33,635 nucleotides of DNA from Chloroflexota bacterium. Its GTDB lineage: Bacteria; Chloroflexota; Dehalococcoidia; Lucifugimonadales; JACQOS01. The DNA is taken from NCBI GenBank assembly GCA_016202425.1, contig JACQOS010000101.1, positions 1-33,635 of the forward strand, in the 5' to 3' direction. Shown piece after piece: positions 7,961 through 30,470 of this stretch. The first letter of the stretch is position 1. The number at the start of each line of letters is the position of its first letter. The position numbers and the translations under genes were made by a program. Below the pieces are notes generated by a model. The model was not told where the DNA came from and did not search any database. It saw only the letters and a program-made list of their open reading frames with translations.

Positions 7961-8458
7961 CTACGCCCCCGTGCCCAGGCTGGCCGCACTCACAAACCTC
8001 CCCAGATTGGCATCATAGTACCGAGCGTTATAGAAGTACAGTCCCGTCCCGTCCAGCCTTTGCCCCGTGAACTTCCGGTCCGTCCCCAGCGTACCGTTGC
8101 TGGTCCTGGCCTCCCCGAAGGGCTTGTACCGCAGGCTGCTCACCTGTGCCCCGGTGCCGTCCGTGCTCACCAGGGAGCCGCCCAGGTGGTCCTGGTGCAC
8201 GTACTCCAGGGCCGTGCCCTTGCGCAAGGCCACCAGGCGCTCTCCCAGGTAGTAATACGTGGTGACCACTCCGGTGGTCACGTTCTTCTCGTAGTAGCGG
8301 TTGGCGTAGTGGACCGTCTGGCCACCCTCCAGCTTCTTTACTCGGTTCCCGTCGCCATCATACACGAACCTGGCACCGCCGCTCACCGCCGTCACGCGGT
8401 TGGGCACGTCCCAGGCGATGGCCTGGGAGCCCCGGGTGGTCATGTTGCCGTTGGCGTC
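7961..8458 (-). pseudogene. Orphan Rhs core fragment (YD repeats to ...NARYYDANLGRFVS), lacking the DPxGL motif and any toxin domain
   Basis: DANGN.., YDGDGNRVKK and YFYNARYYD..GRFVS are Rhs/YD core signatures. The reading frame opens right after a stop at 8474-8476. Homology to the 9475-9845 copy ends exactly after RFVS, and 8 unrelated codons and a stop follow. Confidence 0.85.
7989..8356 (-). repeat. Direct repeat A (Rhs core segment), paired with 9475-9845
   Basis: By-eye alignment at an offset of about 1486 bp. It includes a long perfect run starting CCCCGTGAACTTCCGGTCCGTCCCCAGCGTACCG (8063 / 9549). Confidence 0.85.
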
Positions 8459-8516
8459 GCAAATTTTCAGTAGTTAGCATCCTTCAAAGGCCAGCATTGA
8501 CTCTTAACAGGCGCTT

Positions 8517-8837
8517 CTAGAGTTTAAGAAAACGCTTGAGAAGCCGATATGCCCGGTAGGCGAGCGCACCGCCAACCAAACTAACAACTGCGGCAACCCC
8601 ACCGAGCACAATTTTCCCCATGACCGTAGCTGACGAAGCGGCGATCCCAGTCAAGGCTGAGACAAATGCAGCAAAAGGGTAATATGCTCGCACAAACTTC
8701 TCCATCGGCCGCCTCTTCGCAGCTAGCCAAACAGTTGGCATCACAACTGTCAGTACAAAGGTCAGTCCGATAGCAAGAGCTACGCGAATGTCTTCTCTGG
8801 AGATCCCGGTTGCCATAATGCCTATGAGTAGGTCCAC
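8517..8837 (-). CDS. Small polytopic membrane protein, putative cognate immunity protein 1
   Basis: 106 aa with about 3 hydrophobic helices and a basic C-terminus (AYRAYRLLKRFLKL). It lies 48 nt downstream of the Rhs-CT stop. It is a homolog of ORF 9891..10223, sharing PT(V/I), KFVR.Y.P and Y.L(L/V)KR(F/L)LK. Lower G+C than the flanks. Confidence 0.7.
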   Translation of the reverse strand: MDLLIGIMATGISREDIRVALAIGLTFVLTVVMPTVWLAAKRRPMEKFVRAYYPFAAFVSALTGIAASSATVMGKIVLGGVAAVVSLVGGALAYRAYRLLKRFLKL

Positions 8838-8885
8838 TATGCTCTTCTCTGTAGAGAGATGTCGCCAGACGTTTTCAAAATCGGG

Positions 8886-9767
8886 TTAACTAAAAAGGCC
8901 TTCCCATTGCGGAATAACTGATTCACTGTATATCGCAATTGTTACCGACCATCCTCCAACAAAAACGGAAACCTGTGTCGTAGCAGTTATTGGAAGGGCT
9001 ACAAACCAACCTATAGGTCCCGCAGCTATAGCTGGTGGGTAGGCGAAGATCAACACGCCGGCGACCGCGGTACCAGCGAGGGCTGGCACCAACGCCTCAA
9101 GGGTCTCAAGGGGTGTCAGCACTAGGTTAAACTCTGGCTGACGGTCCGATGTTGAGGGCCGTGCATCGTCTAGGAGTTGCGAAACAGCAGGCTGAATACC
9201 CCCTTGGGCCGCGATGTCTGCTGCCACGAACTGCTGGTGCTCAAATTCAATCTGCGCCCCGAGGCCGTTGATGATGAGCAGGGTTTGCGGGGGTGGGGCT
9301 TCACCTTGCTGCGACAGGTCATACGCCTCCTGCTCCGCTTTCCGCACCTTCGCCTCGTCTTCCGGGCGGTGGTGTAACCCTGTGGGGTCAGTGTACTTGA
9401 GCGGGTTGTTCACGACATAGCTGTACCGACTCAGGCCCTGGGGATCTCTCAGGCGTGGAACAACGCTATCCGGGCTCACAAACCTGCCGATCTGGGGGTC
9501 GTAGTATCTGGCGTTATAGAAATACAGTCCCGTCCCATCCAGCCGCTGCCCCGTGAACTTCCGGTCCGTCCCCAGCGTACCGTTGCTGGTCCTGGCCTCC
9601 CCGAAGGGCTTGTACCGCAGGCTGGCCACCGTGGCCCCAGCGCCGTCCGTGCTCACCAGGGAGCCGCCCAGGTGGTCCTGGTAGACGTACTCCAGGGCTG
9701 TGCCCTTGCGCAAGGCCACCAGGCGCTCTCCCAGGTAGTAGTACGTGGTGACCACTCCGGTGGTCAC
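8886..9767 (-). CDS. Orphan Rhs C-terminal module: core end + DPxGL + about 160-aa C-terminal toxin-like domain with a hydrophobic tip
   Basis: RYYDPQIGRFVSPDS and NNPLKYTDPTGL form the Rhs core terminus. GTG at 9767 is the first start codon, but Rhs homology in the same frame continues up to a stop at 9846-9848 (DADGNLVKKLEGG...). No N-terminal Rhs shell is present. Confidence 0.85.
   Translation of the reverse strand: MTTGVVTTYYYLGERLVALRKGTALEYVYQDHLGGSLVSTDGAGATVASLRYKPFGEARTSNGTLGTDRKFTGQRLDGTGLYFYNARYYDPQIGRFVSPDSVVPRLRDPQGLSRYSYVVNNPLKYTDPTGLHHRPEDEAKVRKAEQEAYDLSQQGEAPPPQTLLIINGLGAQIEFEHQQFVAADIAAQGGIQPAVSQLLDDARPSTSDRQPEFNLVLTPLETLEALVPALAGTAVAGVLIFAYPPAIAAGPIGWFVALPITATTQVSVFVGGWSVTIAIYSESVIPQWEGLFS
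9085..9302 (-). repeat. Direct repeat C (N-terminal part of the toxin CT), paired with 10481-10698
   Basis: 218 bp with 5 mismatches by my manual count. Confidence 0.9.
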
Positions 9768-9845
9768 GTTCCTCTCGTAGTAGCGGTTGGCGTAGTGGAC
9801 CGTCTGGCCGCCCTCCAGCTTCTTTACCAGGTTACCATCGGCGTC
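9475..9845 (-). repeat. Direct repeat B (Rhs core segment), paired with 7989-8356
   Basis: See repeat A. Confidence 0.85.
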
Positions 9846-9890
9846 TTAGGACAACTGGCGCTGAGGCTTACAGGCTCTACGACAAAGCTT

Positions 9891-10223
9891 TCACTGCTTG
9901 AGCAAACGTTTGACAAGACGATAGATCGGGTAGGAGCCATAGCCCGCTGCTAAGGCCACAGGGCCGATTATTCCCATGACGACCAGCTTTTCTACTAGCT
10001 CAGAGGCTGTAACCACGACGCCTGCCTCTGCCGAAAGGAAAAGAGCCCATGGAACATACCGCCGGACAAACTTGTCCGGATTACCTTTGCGAATAGCGAT
10101 AACGATTGTTGGAAGGATCACTGTCAAAAAGAGGACAACCGTGGCAGTTAGCCCCATCATGATGTCGTCAGGCGTTAACTGTGTCAGTCGGTTTAAGCCT
10201 GTCATGACTCCTCCGACGAGCAT
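9891..10223 (-). CDS. Small polytopic membrane protein, putative cognate immunity protein 2
   Basis: 110 aa with about 3 hydrophobic helices. ATG start. It lies 49 nt downstream of the CT fragment stop. Divergent homolog of 8517..8837. Confidence 0.7.
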   Translation of the reverse strand: MLVGGVMTGLNRLTQLTPDDIMMGLTATVVLFLTVILPTIVIAIRKGNPDKFVRRYVPWALFLSAEAGVVVTASELVEKLVVMGIIGPVALAAGYGSYPIYRLVKRLLKQ

Positions 10224-10272
10224 TCATGAAAGTGCACGCTCCTGGCGGCTACGACGCCCGGACCCTGCGACT

Positions 10273-10710
10273 CTACCGAGGCCGTTTGAATAGATCCATC
10301 CATTGCGGGATCACCGACTCACGTAGCACGAGCCCAGTACTAATCACTCCGCCAAAGAAGCTAACTGCTTGGGTAGTTGCCGTTACTGGCAACACGAAGA
10401 ACCATCCCACTGGCCCCATACTTATGACTGCAACATCGGCGGGAAGTAGGGCTACGACAACAACAGTACCCATGGCAAATGGCACCAACGCCTCAAGGGT
10501 CTCAAGGGGTGTCAGCACTAGGTTAAACTCTGGCTGACGGTCCGATGTGGAGGGCCGTGCATCGTCTAGGAGTTGCGAAACAGCAGGCTGAATACCCCCT
10601 TGGGCCGCGATGCCTGCTGCCACGAACTGCTGGTGCTCAAATTCAATCTGCGCCCCCAGGCCGCTGATGATCAGCAGGGTTTGCGGGGGTGGGGCTTCGC
10701 CTCTCTGCAC
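10273..10710 (-). CDS. Orphan Rhs-CT toxin fragment (no Rhs core), variant 2
   Basis: EAPPPQTLLIISGLGAQIEFEHQQFVAAGIAAQGGIQPAVSQLLDDARPSTSDRQPEFNLVLTPLETLEALVP is almost identical to the CT of 8886..9767. A divergent hydrophobic tip then follows. Homology stops at about 10698, 38 nt from the proS stop. Confidence 0.75.
   Translation of the reverse strand: MQRGEAPPPQTLLIISGLGAQIEFEHQQFVAAGIAAQGGIQPAVSQLLDDARPSTSDRQPEFNLVLTPLETLEALVPFAMGTVVVVALLPADVAVISMGPVGWFFVLPVTATTQAVSFFGGVISTGLVLRESVIPQWMDLFKRPR
10481..10698 (-). repeat. Direct repeat D, paired with 9085-9302
   Basis: See repeat C. Confidence 0.9.
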
Positions 10711-13403: not shown

Positions 13404-14318
13404 CTAGCACAAGGGATATCGCTGTCTTCTCTCTTTTAGGACAAGGGCGCCCGATCGAGTCCAGGTCAACTCTCTACCTATGAGTAACTCAAACATCCTG
13501 GCATGATGGGTATTCGTCATGGCCACTGCCGCCACCTGAAACGCGTGCGCTTGAGCCAGTTGCCGAATTTCGGGTGCATCGTCGTATGTCATCAAAAAGT
13601 CGCCAACAAGTGACTGAGCAATCCTGAATAGAGCCACGTGATCAAGGTCATTATGCGTGTAAAGACGAGTTCCAGCTCTCTTGCCACCAGCCGTGTAGGG
13701 GGGGTCAATGAAATACACTACGTCCGGCCGTGCAGCATACTGTCTCAAGACGTCCATCCCATCCCCTTCGATGAACCGAATGCGATGACGCAACTTATGG
13801 ATGTTAAGGATGCGTCTCTTCAAAGTCTCTGGGTACCAACGGGACCTTACCCCTTTGCCGTTTTCACCGTATCTCAGTAAGCTGGCTCCGGGTGCCAAGA
13901 TTCCACCCCTATTGACCCTGTTCCGAACGATCGTCTGAAAGGCCTTCTCCCGAAGGCTGGCAACTTGCCTCGCTAGCTCTTCTTGAACGGATTCCAGGGA
14001 AGGCTCAAACCCCGTGATCCTGTTGACTAGCCATTCGCAATCATCGCTCAAAACGGTTCTCCAGACGGCAGCCACTTGGTCGTCGAGTTCTACCATAGTG
14101 AGGGTGTCTACGAAATTCTCAAATACTGCGGTCAGGCCCACAATGGCACCCCCAGCGAACGGCTCAAGAAGTTCCTTAGGCCTCACGCGCTGGGATGCCA
14201 ACCATTGGCGGGCATATGGAACGAGCCAAGTCTTCCCTCCTGGATAGCGGAAGGGGCTCCTCTGTGGAACAGAGGCAACGTTGACTACATCCTTTCCGAT
14301 GAGAAGTAATTGGACCAT
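13404..14318 (-). CDS. DNA adenine (N6) methyltransferase, Dam-like D12 class
   Basis: FRYPGGKTWL, motif I EPFAGGA and motif IV IDPPY in alpha-class order. ATG at 14318 lies 4 nt after the endonuclease stop. The TTG at 14333 is the ORF-track start. G+C is visibly lower than in neighbouring genes. Confidence 0.88.
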   Translation of the reverse strand: MVQLLLIGKDVVNVASVPQRSPFRYPGGKTWLVPYARQWLASQRVRPKELLEPFAGGAIVGLTAVFENFVDTLTMVELDDQVAAVWRTVLSDDCEWLVNRITGFEPSLESVQEELARQVASLREKAFQTIVRNRVNRGGILAPGASLLRYGENGKGVRSRWYPETLKRRILNIHKLRHRIRFIEGDGMDVLRQYAARPDVVYFIDPPYTAGGKRAGTRLYTHNDLDHVALFRIAQSLVGDFLMTYDDAPEIRQLAQAHAFQVAAVAMTNTHHARMFELLIGRELTWTRSGALVLKERRQRYPLC

Positions 14319-14322
14319 AGAT

Positions 14323-15198
14323 TCACGGCTCAAACGCTAAGGGTTGGACGTCGGGTGCACCATGATTCTCGCCCTGCTTATCGAACTGCTCCTGAAGCTT
14401 CGCCAGGAAATCAGCCTCATCCCCTGGCTCCGGCTTAGTGATCTGGTCGAGAGCTGTTCCAAACTTAGTGTACACTTTTCGCTGTCTTTGAAGGAGGTAT
14501 CTTCGTGTCCTAGGGGAATACGCGGGCGTGTAAGTCAGCCACACCATCTCTGCCTGTTCTTGTGGTACCTCTTCAAGGAGTGGCAGGGTGTCGTACAAGT
14601 TCTCGTCCAAAGCAATGGCGATCTTTCTGTTCCAGGTGTGAAGAATGCCTCCCTTGTACAGTAGTTGGGGAGCTAGGCGCTTGCGAGAAGAGGAGAGGTA
14701 ATCAGGGCGTGGGTAACCAGGGCTACCTCTCCAGTCCATGCCGGCCCGTTTAACGGGATCATCCATGTAGTGCTGGAATGGCCGCCGGATGTTACCGGAG
14801 ATATAGAGAGCCTGGACCTCTAACGCCCCGTAGTCCAAGATCCGGCCGCGCTGGTCGTAGGAGACCAGCACGATGTCGACACTACCAGCAGCCTTGCCGT
14901 GCCGATCTTTCAATTCAACTTCGAACAAAGAGGTCCAATTCACATCGGGAGGGAAGAAGAAAGAGGCGGCGTCTTCTACGACAATCCAATCTTGCCGGAG
15001 CCGGATGGGGCAGATGATCACGACCCTTCCTTCATGAAACATGCTACATACCCCAAGAGGGTCCTCAGCATTATCCTTTGTGCAGTTAGCGGAGACGTTG
15101 TTGAAGGGACAAAGTCTACGTTTGCGATAGCGTTGCGCCTCTGGAGAGTGGTTGTTTACAGGGAATCCAAAGACCTCACCGAGCGGATGATTTCGCAT
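14323..15198 (-). CDS. Type II restriction endonuclease, NotI-like family
   Basis: The 3' third of ORF 14323..16251. The N-terminus GEVFGFPV...CPF..x..C.K....GVC.....IICPIR mirrors the NotI Cys4 metal-binding motif as I recall it. ALEVQALYISGN corresponds to NotI VLEIQTMDFHGS. ATG at 15198 is preceded by GGGGAAGAG. An alternative ATG lies at 15216. Confidence 0.75.
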   Translation of the reverse strand: MRNHPLGEVFGFPVNNHSPEAQRYRKRRLCPFNNVSANCTKDNAEDPLGVCSMFHEGRVVIICPIRLRQDWIVVEDAASFFFPPDVNWTSLFEVELKDRHGKAAGSVDIVLVSYDQRGRILDYGALEVQALYISGNIRRPFQHYMDDPVKRAGMDWRGSPGYPRPDYLSSSRKRLAPQLLYKGGILHTWNRKIAIALDENLYDTLPLLEEVPQEQAEMVWLTYTPAYSPRTRRYLLQRQRKVYTKFGTALDQITKPEPGDEADFLAKLQEQFDKQGENHGAPDVQPLAFEP

Positions 15199-15278
15199 GT
15201 CTCTTCCCCGGCGCATGGCTAAGGGCCCAAAATGTACTCCCGTATGGGCTACCGACGCTCCCCGCTCCACCCATCGCC

Positions 15279-16397
15279 CTACACCTTCTCCACCTCTTCC
15301 ATCAGGGCGGCGAGCATCTCCGCCTCCGGCACGACGCGCACCTTCTGCCCCTTGCGGAAGATAACGGCCCGTCCGGCCCCGGCGGCGATACCCACATCCG
15401 CGTCCTTGGCCTCGCCCGGGCCGTTCACCTCGCAGCCCATGACCGCGACCTTCACGTTCCTGTCCACGCCCTTGAGCAACGCGTCCACCGTGTTGGCAAG
15501 CTTGATCACGTCCACGTCCGCCCGGCCGCAGGAGGGACAGGCCACCAGGGTCGCGCCCTTCTGGCGCAGGTTCAGCGACTTGAGGATCTCGTAGCCGGCG
15601 AACACCTCCTCCCGAGGGTCGTCGGAGAGGGAGACCCGGAGGGTGTCTCCTATCCCCTCGTAGAGGAGCACGCCGATGCCGATAGCGCTGCGGATGCTTC
15701 CGGCCCTGGCGGTGCCTGCCTCGGTGATGCCCAGATGGAAGGGGTAAGGGACCAGCTCCGCCAGGCGGCGATATGCCTCCACGGTAGTGGGAACGTCGAA
15801 GGCCTTCAGAGAGACCTTGATGAGGTCGAAGTCCAGCGCCTCCAGGATGCCGATCTCCCACAGGGCCGTATCCACCATGTGGTCCACCAGCGAGTACTCC
15901 CCCTCCGACGCACCACCCGCTTTGGGCAGCAGGTTCACCTGGTCGCTCAGGCGGTGCAGGGCCCGCGTCTTGCCGATGGCGCCCACGGGAGGGAGGCTGC
16001 CGAAGTTCACGCCGATGCGAATGGGGACCTGCCGCTCCCCAGCCGCCCTGACCACCTGCTTCACCCGCTCCGCGTCGCGGATGTTGCCGGGGTTCAGGCG
16101 GAGGCAGTCCACGCCGCCGGCGATGGCCTCCAGGGCGAGCTGGTAGTGGAAGTGGATGTCCGCCACCAGGGGAATCCCGGTCTGGCGCTTGATCTCCTTC
16201 AGTGCCCTGGCAGCCTCCAGGTCCGGGACGGCGCACCGGACGATCTCGCACCCAACCTCCTCCAGGCCCTTGATCTGCGCTACCGTGGCCTTCACGTCCC
16301 GGGTATCGGTCTTGGTCATGGACTGGACGGTGATAGGTGCGTCGCCCCCCACCTTCACGGGGCCCACCCAGACCGGTTTTGTAGGCCGACGCTTCAT
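15279..16397 (-). CDS. ispG: 4-hydroxy-3-methylbut-2-en-1-yl diphosphate synthase (flavodoxin) IspG/GcpE
   Basis: KPVWVGPVKVGGDAPITVQSMT... and the C-terminal CPSCGR + GCEVNGPGE 4Fe-4S motifs. ATG at 16397 with a GGAAGGGA SD. Confidence 0.93.
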   Translation of the reverse strand: MKRRPTKPVWVGPVKVGGDAPITVQSMTKTDTRDVKATVAQIKGLEEVGCEIVRCAVPDLEAARALKEIKRQTGIPLVADIHFHYQLALEAIAGGVDCLRLNPGNIRDAERVKQVVRAAGERQVPIRIGVNFGSLPPVGAIGKTRALHRLSDQVNLLPKAGGASEGEYSLVDHMVDTALWEIGILEALDFDLIKVSLKAFDVPTTVEAYRRLAELVPYPFHLGITEAGTARAGSIRSAIGIGVLLYEGIGDTLRVSLSDDPREEVFAGYEILKSLNLRQKGATLVACPSCGRADVDVIKLANTVDALLKGVDRNVKVAVMGCEVNGPGEAKDADVGIAAGAGRAVIFRKGQKVRVVPEAEMLAALMEEVEKV

Positions 16398-16422
16398 GAA
16401 AGCCGTCCCTTCCCGCTGCCTT

Positions 16423-17799
16423 CTACGCAGACGGCGTCTGACAAAACCGGTGAACAAGCCTCTGCGCGCCCTCAGTTGAAGCCCAGGCCGCGTCATCCGG
16501 GCCAACCTGGTTGGGACAGATGGCACAGACATTCGATTGAATAAGTTTCTGATGTAACACCTTGGCGTCGCGCAAGAGCGCATCCGGCTCGTTTGTGGCC
16601 TTGCCCAATGCCTGCGTCCACAATTCGAATCGCCTTCTCAGCTTGCCAGGATCAGTAGTACCTTCAGAAAACGCGTCAACAAACCGGTCCAGGACCATTA
16701 CATCGACAAGACGACGGCGTACTGCCATAGCGAAAAGCTTCCTATCCGCGTCCGTTAGTGAGCTCCAAGTCTTCTCAAGCAGCGCTCCGGCCTGAGCAAA
16801 CCCTACCATTTCTAGCTCAAAGAGGAGGTCATTCCGCGGCTTCCCCCACCGGCCAGGAGGGTTACCCGTGTCTCCACGCCTAAATAGACGAAATGCTTCC
16901 TGCCCAAAGACACGGTCGACCCAAGTGCAGGCGATTGCGAACTCCTGTCGGAATCTCTCCGCACTAACAGGATCAAGGTTCCGGTTAGTTTCCATCTCAT
17001 CATTTAGAAAGGACCGAAATGGCCTACGATATCTATCCATCCTGTGAAGCAACGCAAAAACCCGCAACACCAGCTCCCTGTGGCGCATTCTTTTGTCAGG
17101 TTCGTTCTTTTTCCAGAGGGTCAAGAAACGGTAGTCTTCACCCAACGAGGCAATCAACTTGTTGTATGGTCCCCTATACAAGCAATTCCTGAGTTCCTGG
17201 CTGTTCAAACTCATGGAACCTTGGTTCAGCCGCGCGAAGAGGGCGTATTTCATGTCCGAGTGCACACTTTTGGGAAGTCGGATCACCGAAAGTTCCGTAT
17301 CCCATAACTTGGAGCGATCCTCTATGCTTAGCGCAACGACTCCTTTGCCATTAAGCTCAGGCAAAACTTCCAATGCGCGCAGGGTGAGCGGGGTTAACAC
17401 GGTGTACTTTGTCTGCGTTTTTCCAGCAGCAGCTGTCGGACCCTGCAAAACCGGCTGCAGAAAACGAAACACGGTCTCTAGACGTTGATGTCCATCAATC
17501 ACCGCCCAGAGTCCATCCTGCTCTTCAGCTATGAAAATCGCCGGTGTAGGAAGGCGCAGTAACAGTGACTCTATGTAACGGCTTGCGCGGGTTGGGTCCC
17601 ACACATAGTGGCGCTGGAATTCTGGCTCTAAGATCAATTCTTGGCCCAAGTAGCGTTGCCACACTTCTCTGACCTTTACTTTGCTTTCCTCCCACGCGAC
17701 GCTCCGAAATTCCTCGGGGACATGCAAAGGAACGTATTCTTCCTCCTCCCGCTCCCGCTCCGCCCAACTTTCATCCTCCCCCTTAGCGCCCTTGACCAT
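16423..17799 (-). CDS. Stand-alone DUF262 (ParB/Srx-like, GmrSD N-terminal type) protein with an unassigned C-terminal region ending in CxxC...HxxC
   Basis: PEFQRHYVWD...ESLLLRLPTPAIF...VIDGHQRLET is the DUF262 signature. I did not recognise a DUF1524/HNH-type His-Me motif. The C-terminus is CAICPNQ..x..VHRFC. ATG at 17799 has a GGAGGG SD; the TTG at 17826 is the ORF-track start. Visibly lower G+C. Confidence 0.8.
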   Translation of the reverse strand: MVKGAKGEDESWAEREREEEEYVPLHVPEEFRSVAWEESKVKVREVWQRYLGQELILEPEFQRHYVWDPTRASRYIESLLLRLPTPAIFIAEEQDGLWAVIDGHQRLETVFRFLQPVLQGPTAAAGKTQTKYTVLTPLTLRALEVLPELNGKGVVALSIEDRSKLWDTELSVIRLPKSVHSDMKYALFARLNQGSMSLNSQELRNCLYRGPYNKLIASLGEDYRFLTLWKKNEPDKRMRHRELVLRVFALLHRMDRYRRPFRSFLNDEMETNRNLDPVSAERFRQEFAIACTWVDRVFGQEAFRLFRRGDTGNPPGRWGKPRNDLLFELEMVGFAQAGALLEKTWSSLTDADRKLFAMAVRRRLVDVMVLDRFVDAFSEGTTDPGKLRRRFELWTQALGKATNEPDALLRDAKVLHQKLIQSNVCAICPNQVGPDDAAWASTEGAQRLVHRFCQTPSA

Positions 17800-17846
17800 G
17801 TCTACCCTCCAAAGCCAGCTTCTCAACTAACAATTTTCAGAGCGCC

Positions 17847-18932
17847 CTACCCCCCCAGCAGCCGCTCCCCACGGACGATGCGCTGGAGGTCCAGGAAGGT
17901 GATCAGCACGGCCAGGGTGATGAGGACCGCGAACCCCATCATGTGGACCATCCCCTCCTTCGCGGGGGCGATGCGCTTCCCCCGCCGGGCAAGCTCGATA
18001 ATCACGAACAGGATGCGCCCTCCGTCCAGAGCGGGAAGAGGCAAGATGTTGAAGAGCGCCAGGCTCCAGCTAATGATGGCCGTAATATGAGTCGTCACCA
18101 GAAGGCGCTCCCCAAGGCGGAACCCCTCCTGCTGCGCTAGTTCGCCGAAGACCTGGGCCATCCCCACAGGCCCGGTCACCTCGGGGGCGGCTCCTCCCAG
18201 GGCCCAGCGGCTGAACTCGTTCTTCACCAGCACCAGCACCTGCCCCATCTGGCGCGCCGCCCGGACCACAGCGGTGGCGGGGCCCACAGTGCGCCGCTCC
18301 AGGCGCAAGTTGAAGGTGTTCAGGGTGATGCCCACGGCGCCCTGGCCTTCAGGAGGCGTGAAGCGGGGCACGACGGTGGCGGTCACCTTCTCTTCGCCCC
18401 GCTGCACAAGCCACGTCATGGGGGCACCCAACCGGAGGGCTACCCGGTACTGCAAGTCGGTGTGGTTGTCCACTCGGTGCCCGTCCACCTCGAGGACGAT
18501 GTCCTCCGGCTGGAGGCCAGCCCGTTCCGCCGGGGACCCCTGTCCCACCGCAAGGATGACCACCTGGCCGCTCACCACCTCTTGCGGCACCAGGAACAGA
18601 GCGGTGAAGAGCACCAGCGCCAGCGTGGCGTTCATGAGCGGCCCGGCAGCCATGACCAGAAAGCGCACGGCGGGGCTTTTCCCCGCCAGGCTCCCCGGCT
18701 CGGTGGGGTCCTCCTCTCCCGCCAGCTTCACGAACCCGCCCAACGGGATCGCGTTCAGCGAGTACAGCGTCCCGCCTCGGCGGATGCCCCACAGCCGGGG
18801 TGGGAACCCCAGGCCAAACTCCGGCACCCGCACGCCGCTCGCCTTGGCCGCCAGGAGATGCCCCGCCTCGTGGACGAGGATGAGGAGCGCCAGGACCACC
18901 ACGAAACCCAGGAGAAACAGGGCTACCGCCAT
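17847..18932 (-). CDS. rseP: RIP zinc metalloprotease RseP (site-2 protease, M50) with PDZ domain
   Basis: HEAGHLL zinc motif, a central PDZ-like region, NILPLPALDGG, and a conserved position after dxr. Confidence 0.92.
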   Translation of the reverse strand: MAVALFLLGFVVVLALLILVHEAGHLLAAKASGVRVPEFGLGFPPRLWGIRRGGTLYSLNAIPLGGFVKLAGEEDPTEPGSLAGKSPAVRFLVMAAGPLMNATLALVLFTALFLVPQEVVSGQVVILAVGQGSPAERAGLQPEDIVLEVDGHRVDNHTDLQYRVALRLGAPMTWLVQRGEEKVTATVVPRFTPPEGQGAVGITLNTFNLRLERRTVGPATAVVRAARQMGQVLVLVKNEFSRWALGGAAPEVTGPVGMAQVFGELAQQEGFRLGERLLVTTHITAIISWSLALFNILPLPALDGGRILFVIIELARRGKRIAPAKEGMVHMMGFAVLITLAVLITFLDLQRIVRGERLLGG

Positions 18933-18939
18933 GTCCGTG

Positions 18940-20073
18940 TCAGGCCAGCTCCCGGGCCCGCTGCCGCGCCCAGGCGTCCGCTGCCAGGATCTCCTCCAGG
19001 GAGAGCTCGCTGCCCGGCCGGTGCTCGTCCACTACCCGTCGGACCAGCCGGAGGATATCAGTGAAACCGATCCTTTCCCCCAGGAACAGCTCCACGGCGA
19101 CTTCGTCCGCGGCATTCAGGGCGGCCGGGTACGTCCCACCGGCACGGGCCGCCTCCAGAGCGAGGGCGAAGGCGGGATAGCGGGCCGGGTCCAGAGGCTC
19201 AAAAGTCAGCCTTCTGACCCTCACCAGGTCCAGACGTTCCGTGAACTGCCCCTGCCCTCGCTGCGGATAGAACAGCGCGTACTGGAGGGGAAGCCTCATG
19301 TCGGGATAGGCGAGCTGCGCCTTCACCGACCCATCCTGGAACTCCACCAGCGAGTGGACGATGCTCTGGGGATGGACCACCACCTCGATGCGTTCCCACG
19401 GCACGCCGAACAGCCAGTGGGCCTCCATCACCTCAAACGCCTTGTTCATCAGCGTGGCCGAGTCCACGGTCACCTTCTCCCCCATGCGCCAGGTGGGATG
19501 CCGGAGCGCCTCCTGCGGTGTCACCCTGTCCAGCTCCTCCACAGGCCGGCTCCGCAGCGGCCCTCCCGAGGCCGTAAGGATGAGGCGGGCCACGTCCCGC
19601 TCCTCCCCCCTCAGGCACTGCCAAATGGCGCTTGCTTCACTGTCCACCGGCAGCAGCTCCGCACCCGCCGCCACCTCCCGGGCCACCAGGGCGCCACCGA
19701 TAACCACCGCCTCCTTGCTGGCCAGGGCCACCCTCTTCCTGAGTTGCAAGGCATGAAGCACCGGCACCAGCGCCGCGGCTCCGGGAATGGCCATCACCAC
19801 CAGCTCCGCGTCTGGGTGTGCTACAAGTTCCAGGACCGTGGCGCGCGAAGCAAGGGGATTCCTCGCTCCTGCACCGTCCCCAGCAAGCTCCTCAGCGGCC
19901 ACCACCGCCGGGCAGAACTCCTCAACCTGGCGCGACAGCAGCGCCAGGTTGGACCGGGCGCTCAGGCCCACCACTCGGAACCGCTCTGGAAAGCGCCGGA
20001 CGACCTCCAGGGCCTGGCGGCCAATGGAGCCCGTAGACCCAAGGATGGCGATGCCCTTCACGCCTGCAGCCAT
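18940..20073 (-). CDS. dxr: 1-deoxy-D-xylulose 5-phosphate reductoisomerase
   Basis: Starts MAAGVKGIAILGSTGSIGRQALEVV at ATG 20073. 377 aa. The longer ORF to 20343 is an over-extension. Confidence 0.93.
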   Translation of the reverse strand: MAAGVKGIAILGSTGSIGRQALEVVRRFPERFRVVGLSARSNLALLSRQVEEFCPAVVAAEELAGDGAGARNPLASRATVLELVAHPDAELVVMAIPGAAALVPVLHALQLRKRVALASKEAVVIGGALVAREVAAGAELLPVDSEASAIWQCLRGEERDVARLILTASGGPLRSRPVEELDRVTPQEALRHPTWRMGEKVTVDSATLMNKAFEVMEAHWLFGVPWERIEVVVHPQSIVHSLVEFQDGSVKAQLAYPDMRLPLQYALFYPQRGQGQFTERLDLVRVRRLTFEPLDPARYPAFALALEAARAGGTYPAALNAADEVAVELFLGERIGFTDILRLVRRVVDEHRPGSELSLEEILAADAWARQRARELA

Positions 20074-26175: not shown

Positions 26176-26356
26176 GGTGCCGCCGGTAGTAGTCGGCCGT
26201 CATCCTGAGGACCGATTGGATCCTCCGTTCCCTCGTTTCCGGCCTCTTTGCTGTTGTGACGAGAGCAACGTAGCGACTCCGACACGATGGCTTGAGCTTC
26301 TCCCACATCATGACCATGCCGTCCCTAGCAGGGTGTTGAAAAACCCTTTCGACCAT
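26150..26356 (-). CDS. Short YdeI/OmpD-associated (OmdA)-like ORF, either an intact small gene or a 5'-truncated remnant
   Basis: W..LKPSCRSRYVALVTTAKRPETRERRIQSVL matches the L.PS.RR.Y..WI..AK..ETR.RRI pattern of that family. ATG at 26356 is preceded by AAGGGGGA. It overlaps the recombinase 3' end by 32 nt and the miaB start by 26 nt. Confidence 0.45.
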   Translation of the reverse strand: MVERVFQHPARDGMVMMWEKLKPSCRSRYVALVTTAKRPETRERRIQSVLRMTADYYRRHHEGRHQKT

Positions 26357-27945
26357 CCCCCTGTCCCCCTTGGGGTACAGGACGCAATTGCACCTCATCG
26401 GCGGAGCTGCCGAAGGGGATGACGGTCTTGATGGTGACCTGGCCGTCATTGTACACCGCTTCGTCCACCAGCAGGCGGAGTAGTTCTCGGCGCTGCTGGA
26501 AGTCCATAGCCCCCAGCCCCTGGGTGAGCCTCTCGGCCAACGCCTCTACCTGCCCCTGATAGCTCAGGGCCTTGTCCAGGTGGGCTAGCTGGCGCTCCAG
26601 TTCCCGGCGGCGCTCCTCGGCGCTGGTCTGCTCACTGCGCACTCGATCCATCTCCTCCCGCATCATGAAATCGGCGTAGAGGCCCTTGCGGTAGCCTTCC
26701 ACCAACCGCCTCTCTTCCTTGGGCAACTTCTCCAGCCGTTTTCTGACCTGGGTCAGTTCCTCTTCCAGAGCTTCCCTGGTGGTCGAGTCGGGTTGGGTGA
26801 GGCGCTCCAACTCTTGCAGGAGGAGGTCAGGATGTCGCAAGAGACCGGTGACGGTATCCCAGACCGCCGCCTCCACTGCGCGGCCACTGACCCAGGTGCC
26901 GGGGCATGGCTGGGGTTCCCCCCGCTCGTCGATGGGGGCCTTGAAATGGTTGCTCTTGAGACAGTAGTAGTAAGGCGTCCCGTGGCTTGTGCGAGCCCCC
27001 ATGGCACTCCCGCAGGCATGCTTTAGCAGCCCGGAGAGTAGATACTCCCGCTTGGTGTTACGACCAGCCCAGCGCTTGTTTTCCGCCAACCGCCTCCGCA
27101 CGACGTTGAAGGTCTCCTCGGGGATGATGGCGGGAACGGCAGTGGATATCTGCTCCTCCTTCGGTCGCTCATATATACGACGCTTGGGCCTCTGCCCCGG
27201 CTTGTCCACCACCATCTCGCGGTGCCACCGGTTCTGCCAGAGGGTGCCAGTGTAGGTCTCGTTGCCGAGCATCCCCGCCACGAAGCTTATGTGCCACCGC
27301 CGCCCGTTGGAAGGCTTGGGTATGCTCAGTCGATTGAGCCGGTCCACCAATTTGATCAATGAGAGCCTTTCCTGGGCGTAAAGGTAGAAGACCAACCGCA
27401 CTACCTTTGCCTCTTCTTCATCGATGACCAGGAGCGAGCTCTTGGGGTCGTAACGATAGCCATAGGGGGCGGCGGTGCTGCTAATCACCTTCCCTCGCCT
27501 TCTGGAGCCTCCCACGGATGGTGCGCTCCCGAATCTTCCCCCGCTCATATTCCGCTACGGCCCCCCGCATGGCGAAGAACATCCGCCCCTCAGGCGAAGC
27601 GTCCGTCTCCTGGGTAATGAACTCCAGCCGCACCCAGGCCCGCTCTACCTCGTCGGTGAGTAGCAGGAGGTCGGAGAGGTTGCGAGAGAGGCGGTCGGGG
27701 TCATAGCATAAAACCACGTCCACTTGGCCTTCTCTAACGGCCTGGCGCAACCGACTCAGGGCAGGACGATTCAGGTCGCCTCCCGAGTAGCCATCGTCCA
27801 CAAAAGCATCTCTCCCGCCGTCTGTGGCGAGGCCATATCCGCGTTCTTGCGCTCGCTTCCTCAGTCCCCAGTCCTGAGCTGCCAGGCCGTACCGCTCAGC
27901 CTGGGCATCGGTAGATACCTGCTCATATAGCGCTGCCTGTGTCAT
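26325..27945 (-). pseudogene. Large serine recombinase (phage-integrase type), frame-disrupted
   Basis: The N-terminal resolvase domain (ORF 27481..27945, ...LYEQVSTDAQ..., VLCYDPDRLSRN, EYERGKIRERT) ends at ...LQKAREGD*. The recombinase, zinc-ribbon and coiled-coil domains continue in another frame (ORF 26325..27548, from GKVISSTAAPYGYRYD). The shift lies at about 27481-27495. The Arg usually found two residues before the catalytic Ser (Y-x-R-V-S) is Gln here. Confidence 0.85.
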
Positions 27946-29077: not shown

Positions 29078-30470
29078 ATGGCATACAATCTGCTGGGCTG
29101 GGAGCGAGAGCAGGGATACCTGATGCCGCCGTCCATGCGGGAATGGTTGAGCGAGGGTCATCTGGCCTGGTTCATAGTGGATGCTGTAGAGGAGATGGAT
29201 CTCAGGGAGTTCTATGCGGCATACCGGAATGATGGCTGGGGTGCTGCCGCCTACGACCCGAAAGTAATGGTTGGGGGTGTTGCTCTATGGTTACTGCCTA
29301 GGCTTGCGCAGTTCCCGGCGCATGGCCCGTGGTCTGGAGGAAGATGTGGGGTTCCGGGTAGTGGCGGCCAACCAGCAACCGGACTTCCGGACCATCTGCC
29401 GGTTCCGTGCGGAGCACGAGGAGGCGCTGGAGAAGCTCTTCGTAGAGGTGCTGCGGCTGTGCCGGGAGGCGGGCCTGGTGAAGCTGGGCGTCGTAGCCCT
29501 GGATGGGACGAAGGTGGCGGCGAGTGCAGCTCTGGCCGCCAACCGGAACCACGAGGCCATTGAGGAAGAGGTACGGCGGATGCTGGCCGAGGCGAAGGCC
29601 GTGGACGCCGAAGAGGATGCTCGCTACGGTATGGACCGGCGAGGGTACGAGCTACCGGAAGGGCTCAGTAGGCGGGCGGAGCGGCTGAAGCGGTTGAAAG
29701 AAGCCAAGGAACGTCTGGAGCGGGAAGCTGAGGAAGTGGCTCAGGCTGCCCACGAGCACCTTATGCAACGGCAGGCAGAGGAGGTGGCCACCGGGAAGAA
29801 GAAGCGGGTCAGGAAGTCCCAGAGGGTGGCAACAACCCCTTCGGCAGAGGCCAAGGCCAATACCACCGACCCAGACAGTCGCATCATGAAGACCAGGCAA
29901 GGGTACGTGCAGGGCTACAACGTCCAGGCGATGGTGAGTGAGGACCAGGTCATCGTAGCCATTGGGGTGACCCAGGAGGCCAACGATGTGCAACAACTGG
30001 AGCCCATGCTCCAGACCATGGAGCACATCCTGAAAACAGCGGGCATGGAAGATGGACCCAAAGTGGCCCTGGCGGATGCGGGCTACTGGAGTGAGGCCAA
30101 CGTCAAGGCGTGCTCCACTCCACAGATGCCTGAGCTTCTCATTGCCACCACCAAGGACTGGAAGCAACGGAAGTTGCTACGGGAGAAAGGTTGTCCCCGA
30201 GGCCGTATTCCAAGAGGGCTGAGCCTGAGGGACAGGATGGAGCGCAAGCTGCTGACCAAGCGGGGCCGAGCCCTGTACAAGATACGGGGTGTGCTGGTGG
30301 AGCCGGTGCTGGGTCAGGTCAAGGAAGGGCAAGGGTTCCGGCGGTTTATGAGACGGGGGCTTGGGGCTGCCCAGAGTGAGTGGTCACTGGTGGGGATGAC
30401 CCACAATTTGCTCAAGCTATGGCGCAGTGGCCAGGCCCCATGGGGATGGGACAAGGCACGTTGGAACTAG
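29078..30470 (+). pseudogene. IS1182-family DDE transposase, +1 frame break in a G-run
   Basis: ORF 29069..29563 (...AAYDPKVMVG) and ORF 29271..30470 (VLLYGYCLGLRSSRRMARGLEEDVGFRVVAANQQPDFRTICRFR...LADAGYWSE...) join into one IS1182-like protein if GGGGG at 29273-29277 were GGGG. Confidence 0.8.

Follow-up and report, generated by a model that had tools for sequence, protein, structure and literature searches.

A stand-alone NsnA-like DUF262 gene with a putative HNH remnant in the rseP-ispG spacer of a Dehalococcoidia genome

Among the described systems closest to the gene reported here, Menshen comprises three genes, of which NsnA, made of a ParB-DUF262 domain and a helical DNA-binding domain called ParBDB, is the proposed sensor of DNA and infection and has as partners an ABC ATPase, NsnB, and the effector, NsnC (PMC12065111). 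The sensor domains of GmrSD, BrxU, and SspE provide the homology basis for the binding of nucleoside triphosphates (NTP) and DNA (PMC10952713, PMC12065111), and in BrxU and HEC-06 the mutation of the acidic residue and the histidine of the nuclease motif abolishes defence (10.1101/2024.01.29.577857). Here, we analyse a stretch of 33,635 nucleotides (nt) from a bacterium of the Dehalococcoidia, in the Chloroflexota (assembly GCA_016202425.1, contig JACQOS010000101.1; hereafter the window), in which a single DUF262 gene of low G+C content lies between rseP and ispG. We put at about 60% the probability that this gene came by horizontal transfer and is a stand-alone member of the NsnA-like family, transcribed by read-through and encoding a sensor of NTP and DNA whose HNH nuclease is dead.

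Domain architecture and the C-terminal zinc module

The open reading frame (ORF) runs over 16423..17826 on the minus strand, and the ATG at 17799 gives a protein of 458 amino acids (aa), in agreement with the 445-465 aa of most full-length homologues. This start has a GGAGGG Shine-Dalgarno sequence at 17810-17805, 5 nt upstream, and the alternative TTG start at 17826 has none. The gene and its parts are as follows.

16423..17799, minus strand: coding sequence of the 458-aa solo protein with ParB-DUF262, ParBDB, and predicted vestigial HNH parts, a member of the 'short clade' of the NsnA-like family (ORF, Pfam, PADLOC, homologues, AlphaFold2, composition)
17176..17634, minus strand: ParB/DUF262 NTPase domain, aa 56-208, with the FQRHYVWD and DGHQR motifs (PF03235, E = 4.8e-22)
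16594..17175, minus strand: helical ParBDB (NsnA-C-like), putative DNA-binding region, aa ~209-402 (PADLOC NsnA alignment, AlphaFold2)
16441..16527, minus strand: putative vestigial HNH zinc module, C425-x2-C428-x21-H450-x2-C453, without the catalytic D-H, N, and N (ligand conservation, sister-clade comparison, hhalign)

The sole Pfam match is GmrSD_N/DUF262 (79.5 bits against a cut-off of 33.2); at E <= 0.01 the scan of the protein gave neither DUF1524 (PF07510) nor HNH, and no NCBIfam family was matched. The motifs EFQRHYVWD, IDGHQRLET, and CAIC-x21-HRFC are all present, and residues Q62, R63, W67, D102, H104, Q105, and R106 are invariant in an alignment of 65 sequences. The NTP-binding motif is a DGHQR variant, invariant in the window's clade, as opposed to the DGQQR type of DUF262 families, and in the short clade it is followed by an insert of 20 aa. 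The PADLOC profile of NsnA (E = 1.3e-70) places its positions 34-383 of 385 on aa 20-402, and because this alignment is nearly end to end, the region that follows the DUF262 domain is predicted to be a ParBDB. The PADLOC profile PD-T4-2_A matches in part (E = 2.5e-41, aa 34-295, profile positions 32-283 of 363). An AlphaFold2 model built on the 65-sequence alignment reached a predicted local distance difference test score (pLDDT) of 89, with an all-helical ParBDB region above 90. Foldseek searches with this full-length model returned weak matches limited to ParB N-domains and SspE (6jiv), at E >= 0.03, and a comparison of the family profile with PDB chains gave nothing beyond an 818-aa DUF262 protein at E = 0.08.

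Several comparisons suggest that the CxxC...HxxC cluster at the C-terminus is what is left of an HNH nuclease. First, the zinc ligands C425, C428, H450, and C453 are invariant or nearly so in the 65-sequence alignment, and at the same position the sister clade (<=40% identity to the window protein) has the pattern CxxC-x13-DH-x13-N-x4-HxxC-N. The consensus of that module, CAICGQxIxxIDDAAVDHIEQYWRGGKTIPENARLTHRYCN, is a 40-aa Pfam HNH domain (PF01844) above the gathering score, and D392, H393, N407, and N416 are invariant in an alignment of 20 sister-clade sequences. Second, in the window's clade (>=40% identity) the zinc ligands, first to last, span 25-31 residues, and a deletion of 10-14 aa takes out the D-H and the first Asn, the final Asn being substituted; the pattern [DEH]H occurs between the ligand pairs in none of its 110 members. 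Third, the hhalign comparison of the short and HNH clades gives a probability of 100% over 418 columns at 37% identity, with a gap of 10 columns exactly over 'HIeqYWxGGkT', and the 'DDA' before the hairpin and the 'HRxC' are conserved in short and HNH clades alike. Fourth, the AlphaFold2 model has a beta-hairpin between the ligand pairs, and the C-terminal 76 aa modelled by themselves (pLDDT 91) form two helices and a beta-hairpin. Read from these alignments, the cluster is a vestigial His-Me nuclease of the HNH type in which the catalytic D-H, N, and N were deleted or replaced: the zinc pairs that define PF01844 are there, and its catalytic His and Asn are not.

An earlier, sequence-only reading of this DNA had picked out FQRHYVWD, IDGHQRLET, and the CxxC...HxxC cluster, all of which we find in the sequence, and had recognised no DUF1524 half, in line with the Pfam scan, where GmrSD_N/DUF262 stands by itself; nor does the C-terminal half match any housekeeping domain. 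Two of its proposals have to be revised. The roughly 250 aa that it left unassigned are covered by the NsnA profile as ParBDB, with the cluster as a probable HNH remnant, and modification-dependent restriction of the GmrSD kind becomes unlikely for the clade, the catalytic residues being gone.

Variants of the module were also seen elsewhere in the family. In about 11 further representatives, out of the 150 best of an exhaustive search by profile, the module is full-length but has another sequence in place of the D-H, and P0141, P0147, P0152, P0158, P0164, P0177, and P0257 are of the DGQQR type, with an HNH-like segment of 38-43 aa in which the D-H is replaced (e.g. DDAVFLDVDFYW). Since full-length variants with a replaced D-H exist beside the deletion clade, inactivation of the HNH may have occurred more than once, and some of these inactivations may be independent of the deletion.

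Homologues of the window protein number more than 365, of which the best is 58% identical, and over 100 clusters at the 90% identity level have intact ORFs. Only four clade members have a taxon label, and all of them are Chloroflexota. The wider family, gathered by profile search at E <= 1e-30, has 2154 clusters at 50% identity. In a neighbour-joining tree the short clade is monophyletic and sister to the HNH clade, and the NsnA-like proteins of ~380 aa, which have no zinc module, fall outside both. Mean column identity in the family alignment is 51%, and in one pair the nonsynonymous divergence (dN) is 0.18 and the synonymous one (dS) saturated; near-identical pairs had too few substitutions for their dN/dS to be informative. 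The intact ORFs, the invariant NTPase motifs and zinc ligands, and the dN of 0.18 argue that the family is still functional. In IMG/VR we found no member of the short clade, just NsnA-like proteins at 28-32% identity and one member of the HNH clade at 35%; a phage origin was considered and set aside, these relatives being distant.

The HNH clade shows variety of another kind. Many of its metagenome loci (L139, L142, L147, L153, L158, L176, and others) have a tail of 88-147 aa after the HNH, which in L139 matches the Mrr_N winged-helix domain (E = 2e-13), and other representatives of the family have N-terminal extensions of 130-380 aa. This variety of tails and N-termini resembles the sensor-domain polymorphism described for NsnA of Menshen.

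Insertion between rseP and ispG

The gene is flanked by very short spacers and by native genes of the same orientation, as follows.

17847..18932, minus strand: rseP (M50 site-2 protease with a PDZ domain), native upstream neighbour (Pfam Peptidase_M50, E = 3.7e-49)
17800..17846, minus strand: 47-nt spacer downstream of the rseP stop, which holds the Shine-Dalgarno sequence of the DUF262 gene (sequence)
16398..16422, minus strand: 25-nt spacer from the stop of the DUF262 gene to the ispG ATG, which holds the ispG ribosome-binding site GGGAAGGGA (sequence)
15279..16397, minus strand: ispG (GcpE), native downstream neighbour (Pfam GcpE, E = 2.5e-136)

The stop codon of rseP is at 17847-17849, which leaves 47 nt before the DUF262 gene (20 nt with the TTG start), and 25 nt separate the stop codon of the latter (16423-16425) from the ispG ATG at 16397. 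The C-terminus of RseP, ...RGERLLGG*, is intact, since it matches the ...RGESLIGG* of the two closest relatives, and the IspG of the window is 84% identical to that of a Dehalococcoidia metagenome-assembled genome (MAG).

To compare the junction, we searched for relatives with IspG, keeping one genome per species, and obtained 80 loci with an IspG 70-84% identical to that of the window, all of them from Dehalococcoidia, SAR202, or Chloroflexota MAGs. None of the 80 has a homologue of the DUF262 gene within 6 kb of ispG. The common gene order among them is dxr-rseP-ispG, and of the 64 loci with both genes, 34 have a gap of <=150 nt between rseP and ispG, 14 one of 151-400 nt, and 16 one of >400 nt; the gap is ~30 nt in the two closest relatives. 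As the gene is absent near ispG in all these relatives, where rseP and ispG often abut, it is a lineage-specific insertion in the rseP-ispG spacer; the insert measures ~1.45 kb, nearly all of it the DUF262 gene. Composition agrees: the G+C content of the gene is 0.534, against 0.683 in rseP and 0.672 in ispG, and at third codon positions (GC3) it is 0.586, against 0.876 and 0.895. On these values the gene is foreign to its host and was acquired horizontally. The same signal is found in three homologues examined in high-G+C hosts (0.46-0.48 against 0.59-0.68 in the flanks), and over 87 family loci the G+C of the gene is on average 0.05 below that of the flanks, the two being similar in low-G+C hosts.

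The mode of arrival left few marks. A repeat search of 16200-18000 gave only direct or inverted matches of 10-20 nt, at chance level, no boundary motif is common to nine clade members, and scans of the window for tRNAs and Rfam families were both empty. A known mobile element (insertion sequence, transposon, integron cassette, or integrative island) was considered for the insert and rejected, as there are no border repeats, boundary motif, or tRNA. The nearest recombinase and transposase genes lie 8.5-11.5 kb away: a serine-recombinase-type gene with Recombinase and Zn_ribbon_recom domains (26325-27548, minus strand) and a DDE transposase with DUF772 and DDE_Tnp_1 domains (29271-30470, plus strand), around which G+C is slightly lowered (0.60-0.63); we found no link between them and the insertion. 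At the ispG junction itself there is an inverted repeat of 20 nt, 16372-16391 / 16432-16451, with 16 of 20 bases paired and 11 contiguous, which encloses the ispG Shine-Dalgarno sequence and ATG in a loop of 40 nt. It arises because the HRFC codons of the DUF262 gene are the reverse complement of the TKPV codons of ispG, and its hairpin is not more stable than those of shuffled sequences (z = -0.8), so that chance complementarity of the codons is its probable origin. The junction on the rseP side folds no better than shuffles either.

Other members of the family are inserted in other places. When all flanking ORFs of 84 family loci were clustered, no conserved neighbour emerged, the largest clusters being integrases (5 loci), DNA methyltransferases (4), and MazF/AbrB-like pairs (3). 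The nine clade contexts annotated with Pfam all differ; in one the gene stands between dapF and an aminotransferase-hflX pair, and in others it is next to methionine synthase, amidase, or formate-dehydrogenase-like genes. HNH-clade members are found among restriction-modification and toxin-antitoxin genes, mostly in low-G+C genomes.

These contexts have features that bear on expression: the upstream neighbour is co-directional in 9/9 of the annotated ones, the window among them, and all nine clade members have a Shine-Dalgarno sequence of the GGAGG type. A consensus scan of 15100-19000 was negative for promoter-like sites, and neither the 47-nt nor the 25-nt spacer has anything resembling a terminator. 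We propose that a cassette with no promoter or terminator, endowed with its own Shine-Dalgarno sequence, would have entered the 30-nt rseP-ispG spacer of the operon uppS-cdsA-dxr-rseP-ispG-proS, and that the DUF262 gene would be transcribed by read-through of this operon and translated from its own ribosome-binding site. Such an insert must have no terminator, because ispG and proS lie downstream.

Both sides of ispG receive cargo. At rseP|ispG, one relative (L026) has an ApeA gene (ApeA_NTD1 and HEPN_Apea) with a retropepsin-like gene, and others have unrelated small ORFs of low G+C. The gene proS follows ispG within 250 nt in 32/64 relatives, and 25 relatives have ispG|proS inserts of more than 600 nt. 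Cargo of the latter includes a XamI restriction endonuclease with an Eco57I-like methyltransferase and a PIN gene (L060), FitA with PIN (L015), an HSDR_N-like gene with Uma2 (L073), MNT nucleotidyltransferases (L036, L039), and a Gp49/RelE-like gene (L044, L050). In both spacers the cargo of these relatives (L008-L087) is mostly co-directional with the operon. The window itself has a second island at this junction.

13404..15201, minus strand: second low-G+C island, at ispG|proS (G+C 0.53-0.54)
14323-15201, minus strand: NotI-family restriction endonuclease (Pfam NotI, E = 7.9e-53)
13404-14333, minus strand: D12-class N6-adenine methyltransferase (Pfam MethyltransfD12; PADLOC PD-Lambda-5_B, the best match, and MTase_II)

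The endonuclease ORF overlaps the start of the methyltransferase. This NotI-fold enzyme has an adenine methyltransferase as its partner, which implies that its specificity is not that of NotI. The native ispG of the window thus has foreign DNA of the defence type on either side, and in this Dehalococcoidia/SAR202 lineage cargo recurs at the two junctions of ispG, VapBC included. The DUF262 gene is one case of this recurring pattern, from which its location gains some weight as support for a role in conflict or defence. The spacers of dxr-rseP-ispG-proS form a defined and comparable hotspot, where one can study how cargo enters while the expression of essential genes is spared.

The sequence-only reading fares well on most of these points. 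It had described a lone DUF262 gene of low G+C, inserted between rseP and ispG in the orientation of both, with spacers of 25 nt and 47 nt (20 nt with the TTG) and little room for a promoter or terminator of its own; the spacers are confirmed from the sequence, no such signals are predicted, the computed composition (including GC3) departs from that of rseP and ispG, and the 80 related loci hold no syntenic orthologue of native composition. It also held that a defence gene in a housekeeping operon would be unusual. The placement in the operon stands; that it is a one-off does not, given the other defence and toxin-antitoxin cargo at both ispG junctions of the relatives.

Farther along the minus strand, 7961-10710 has low-G+C stretches (0.50-0.57) with repeated fragments of Rhs/YD-repeat C-terminal cores (…YYYLGERLVALRKG…DHLGGS…RYYDPQIGRFVSPDS), each with a variable C-terminal tip followed by a small ORF with two transmembrane segments (106 aa, 110 aa). 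It looks like an array of orphan polymorphic-toxin tips and immunity genes.

Possible roles and competing explanations

The window protein is probably a sensor of the defence type that is unable to cut DNA in the usual way. By homology to the sensors of GmrSD, BrxU, SspE, and NsnA, it would still bind nucleotide and DNA, and it would sense foreign or modified DNA in a conflict or defence role. If its HNH is unable to cleave, any protection must come from a route other than the HNH, be it binding or occlusion gated by NTP, an effector encoded at an unlinked site, or cleavage by the ParB/Srx domain itself. The loss of residues that are essential in BrxU and HEC-06 argues against restriction of the GmrSD kind here.

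Several points weigh against this interpretation. The defence role is argued from homology to the sensor domains of NsnA, GmrSD, and SspE and from the genomic location, and no effector was found, the nuclease being dead and a partner gene missing. Binding of NTP is predicted through a DGHQR variant of the motif. Read-through is deduced from absent consensus signals, and the promoters of this host may differ from the sigma-70 consensus. That the HNH was lost and not gained is a parsimony argument, the two clades being sisters and not nested. Finally, Foldseek matches of the C-terminal fragment (Cas9 HNH, Gme HNH, T4 endonuclease VII, PHD fingers) all have E > 0.4 and are not significant.

A possible and still tentative explanation is that the whole clade consists of nuclease-free immune or conflict proteins, i.e. 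ParB-like NTP-gated DNA clamps or sensors that would work by occlusion, silencing, or recruitment of host factors, with a zinc module that is not catalytic. Promoter-less defence cassettes would then use the rseP|ispG|proS spacers as safe harbours in which expression is guaranteed. Repeated inactivation of the HNH would mean that the zinc module does have a non-catalytic role.

It is unlikely that the protein works as a single-chain type IV enzyme, restricting or nicking DNA in a modification-dependent way, with catalysis by the ParB/Srx-fold DUF262 domain or by a re-wired zinc module that uses the conserved D-D pair. The DUF262 motifs are intact, the 'DDA' ahead of the hairpin is conserved in both clades, and the gene is at a defence hotspot; moreover, nuclease activity has been reported for the ParB/Srx-fold Osa and plant sulfiredoxin, and GmrS has been considered as having a second such activity (PMC4619093). 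However, all three HNH catalytic positions, which are invariant in the sister clade, are gone, Pfam finds no DUF1524 or other nuclease domain, and mutants of the nuclease motif in BrxU and HEC-06 lose defence (10.1101/2024.01.29.577857).

We also regard as doubtful that the gene is the sensor of a split system, an orphan NsnA-like protein whose partner, be it NsnB/NsnC-like, Dnd/Ssp-like, or a nuclease, is encoded elsewhere in the genome. It would fit the absence of an effector of its own, the fact that the best profile match is NsnA, the proposed Menshen sensor (PMC12065111), and the precedent of SspE, which relies on host phosphorothioation from separate genes. Yet there is no conserved neighbour in ~90 loci, nothing like an NsnB-type ABC ATPase appears among the 15 window ORFs scanned with Pfam, and a gene that travels alone between unrelated sites is hard to square with an obligate partner.

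The last two explanations are very improbable. A selfish gene of the homing type, in which an HNH endonuclease ancestor invaded the spacers of conserved genes, as free-standing genes for homing endonucleases do, and left the window copy as a decayed, immobile remnant, would account for the HNH ancestry, the different location in every genome, and a precise insertion that affects the spacer only and leaves both rseP and ispG intact, but the whole clade has a dead HNH and nevertheless occupies many sites, which implies a spread independent of the nuclease, flanking repeats are absent, members of the HNH clade sit among restriction-modification and toxin-antitoxin genes, and NTPase motifs and zinc ligands kept over long evolutionary distances speak for selection on a function in the cell. 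A ParB-like protein domesticated for housekeeping or regulation, for instance as a nucleoid protein or as an NTP-dependent repressor of the DndB or KorB kind, and regulated together with the operon of envelope and isoprenoid genes, would fit the presumed co-transcription, a nuclease loss compatible with a role that needs DNA binding alone, and the regulatory potential of ParB-fold NTPases, DndB being listed as a ParB-domain NTPase (PMC12065111), but the gene is missing at this site in all 80 relatives, its composition is foreign, its neighbours differ in each genome, and its distribution is patchy.

Under the reading we favour, a horizontally acquired stand-alone sensor with a dead HNH, one Chloroflexota clade has shed its nuclease, yet it is conserved and still moves between genomes. 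Should such proteins be active, a DUF262 sensor would need neither a fused nor an adjacent effector in order to act, which, if true, bears on signalling by the sensors of Menshen, Dazbog, PD-T4-2, and SspE-type systems.

Comparison with known systems

The window protein resembles NsnA of Menshen in having a ParB-DUF262 domain followed by a helical ParBDB. It differs in three respects: 1) neither NsnB (ABC ATPase with DUF3696) nor NsnC (inPIN with a nuclease effector) adjoins the gene, whose neighbours are rseP and ispG, and neither was found at any of ~90 family loci; 2) it has an extra C-terminal zinc module, which NsnA-like proteins of ~380 aa do not have; and 3) its NTP motif is DGHQR rather than DGQQR. 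A complete Menshen system was rejected for the missing partner genes, and automated defence finders would miss the gene or call it an incomplete Menshen system. As for PD-T4-2, which combines a DUF262 protein A with a HEPN protein B, the profile of A is partly matched and the HEPN partner is absent beside the window gene; a complete system was also rejected, since neither the 47-nt nor the 25-nt spacer holds a second gene.

With GmrSD, BrxU, and SspE, the window protein shares a single-gene organisation, an N-terminal DUF262, a helical region that serves as linker or binds DNA, and a C-terminal module predicted to derive from a His-Me finger. In contrast with these enzymes, which carry a DUF1524 His-Me nuclease with (D/E)H...N, it has no DUF1524, and the module at its C-terminus belongs to the HNH type of PF01844 and is presumably catalytically dead; outside DUF262, sequence similarity to them is negligible. 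The sister single-chain DUF262-ParBDB-HNH proteins, which we found in metagenomes, are homologous over the full length, are also solo, and share the zinc ligands, the 'DDA', and the 'HRxC'. Their HNH is complete, whereas that of the window's clade has lost the catalytic residues in the 10-14-aa deletion.

What is new here is detail, namely a solo clade with a dead nuclease and a hotspot in the spacers of an operon; no new kind of system is demonstrated. Judged on its domains, the window protein is none of GmrSD, Menshen, or an active HNH nuclease; it is best described as a new variant in the ParB-DUF262 sensor superfamily. The comparison also reveals a sizeable, uncharacterised family of single-chain NsnA-like-HNH proteins, whose HNH sister clade, as predicted from the same domains, is the architectural analogue of GmrSD, BrxU, and SspE, an NTPase and DNA sensor fused to a His-Me nuclease.

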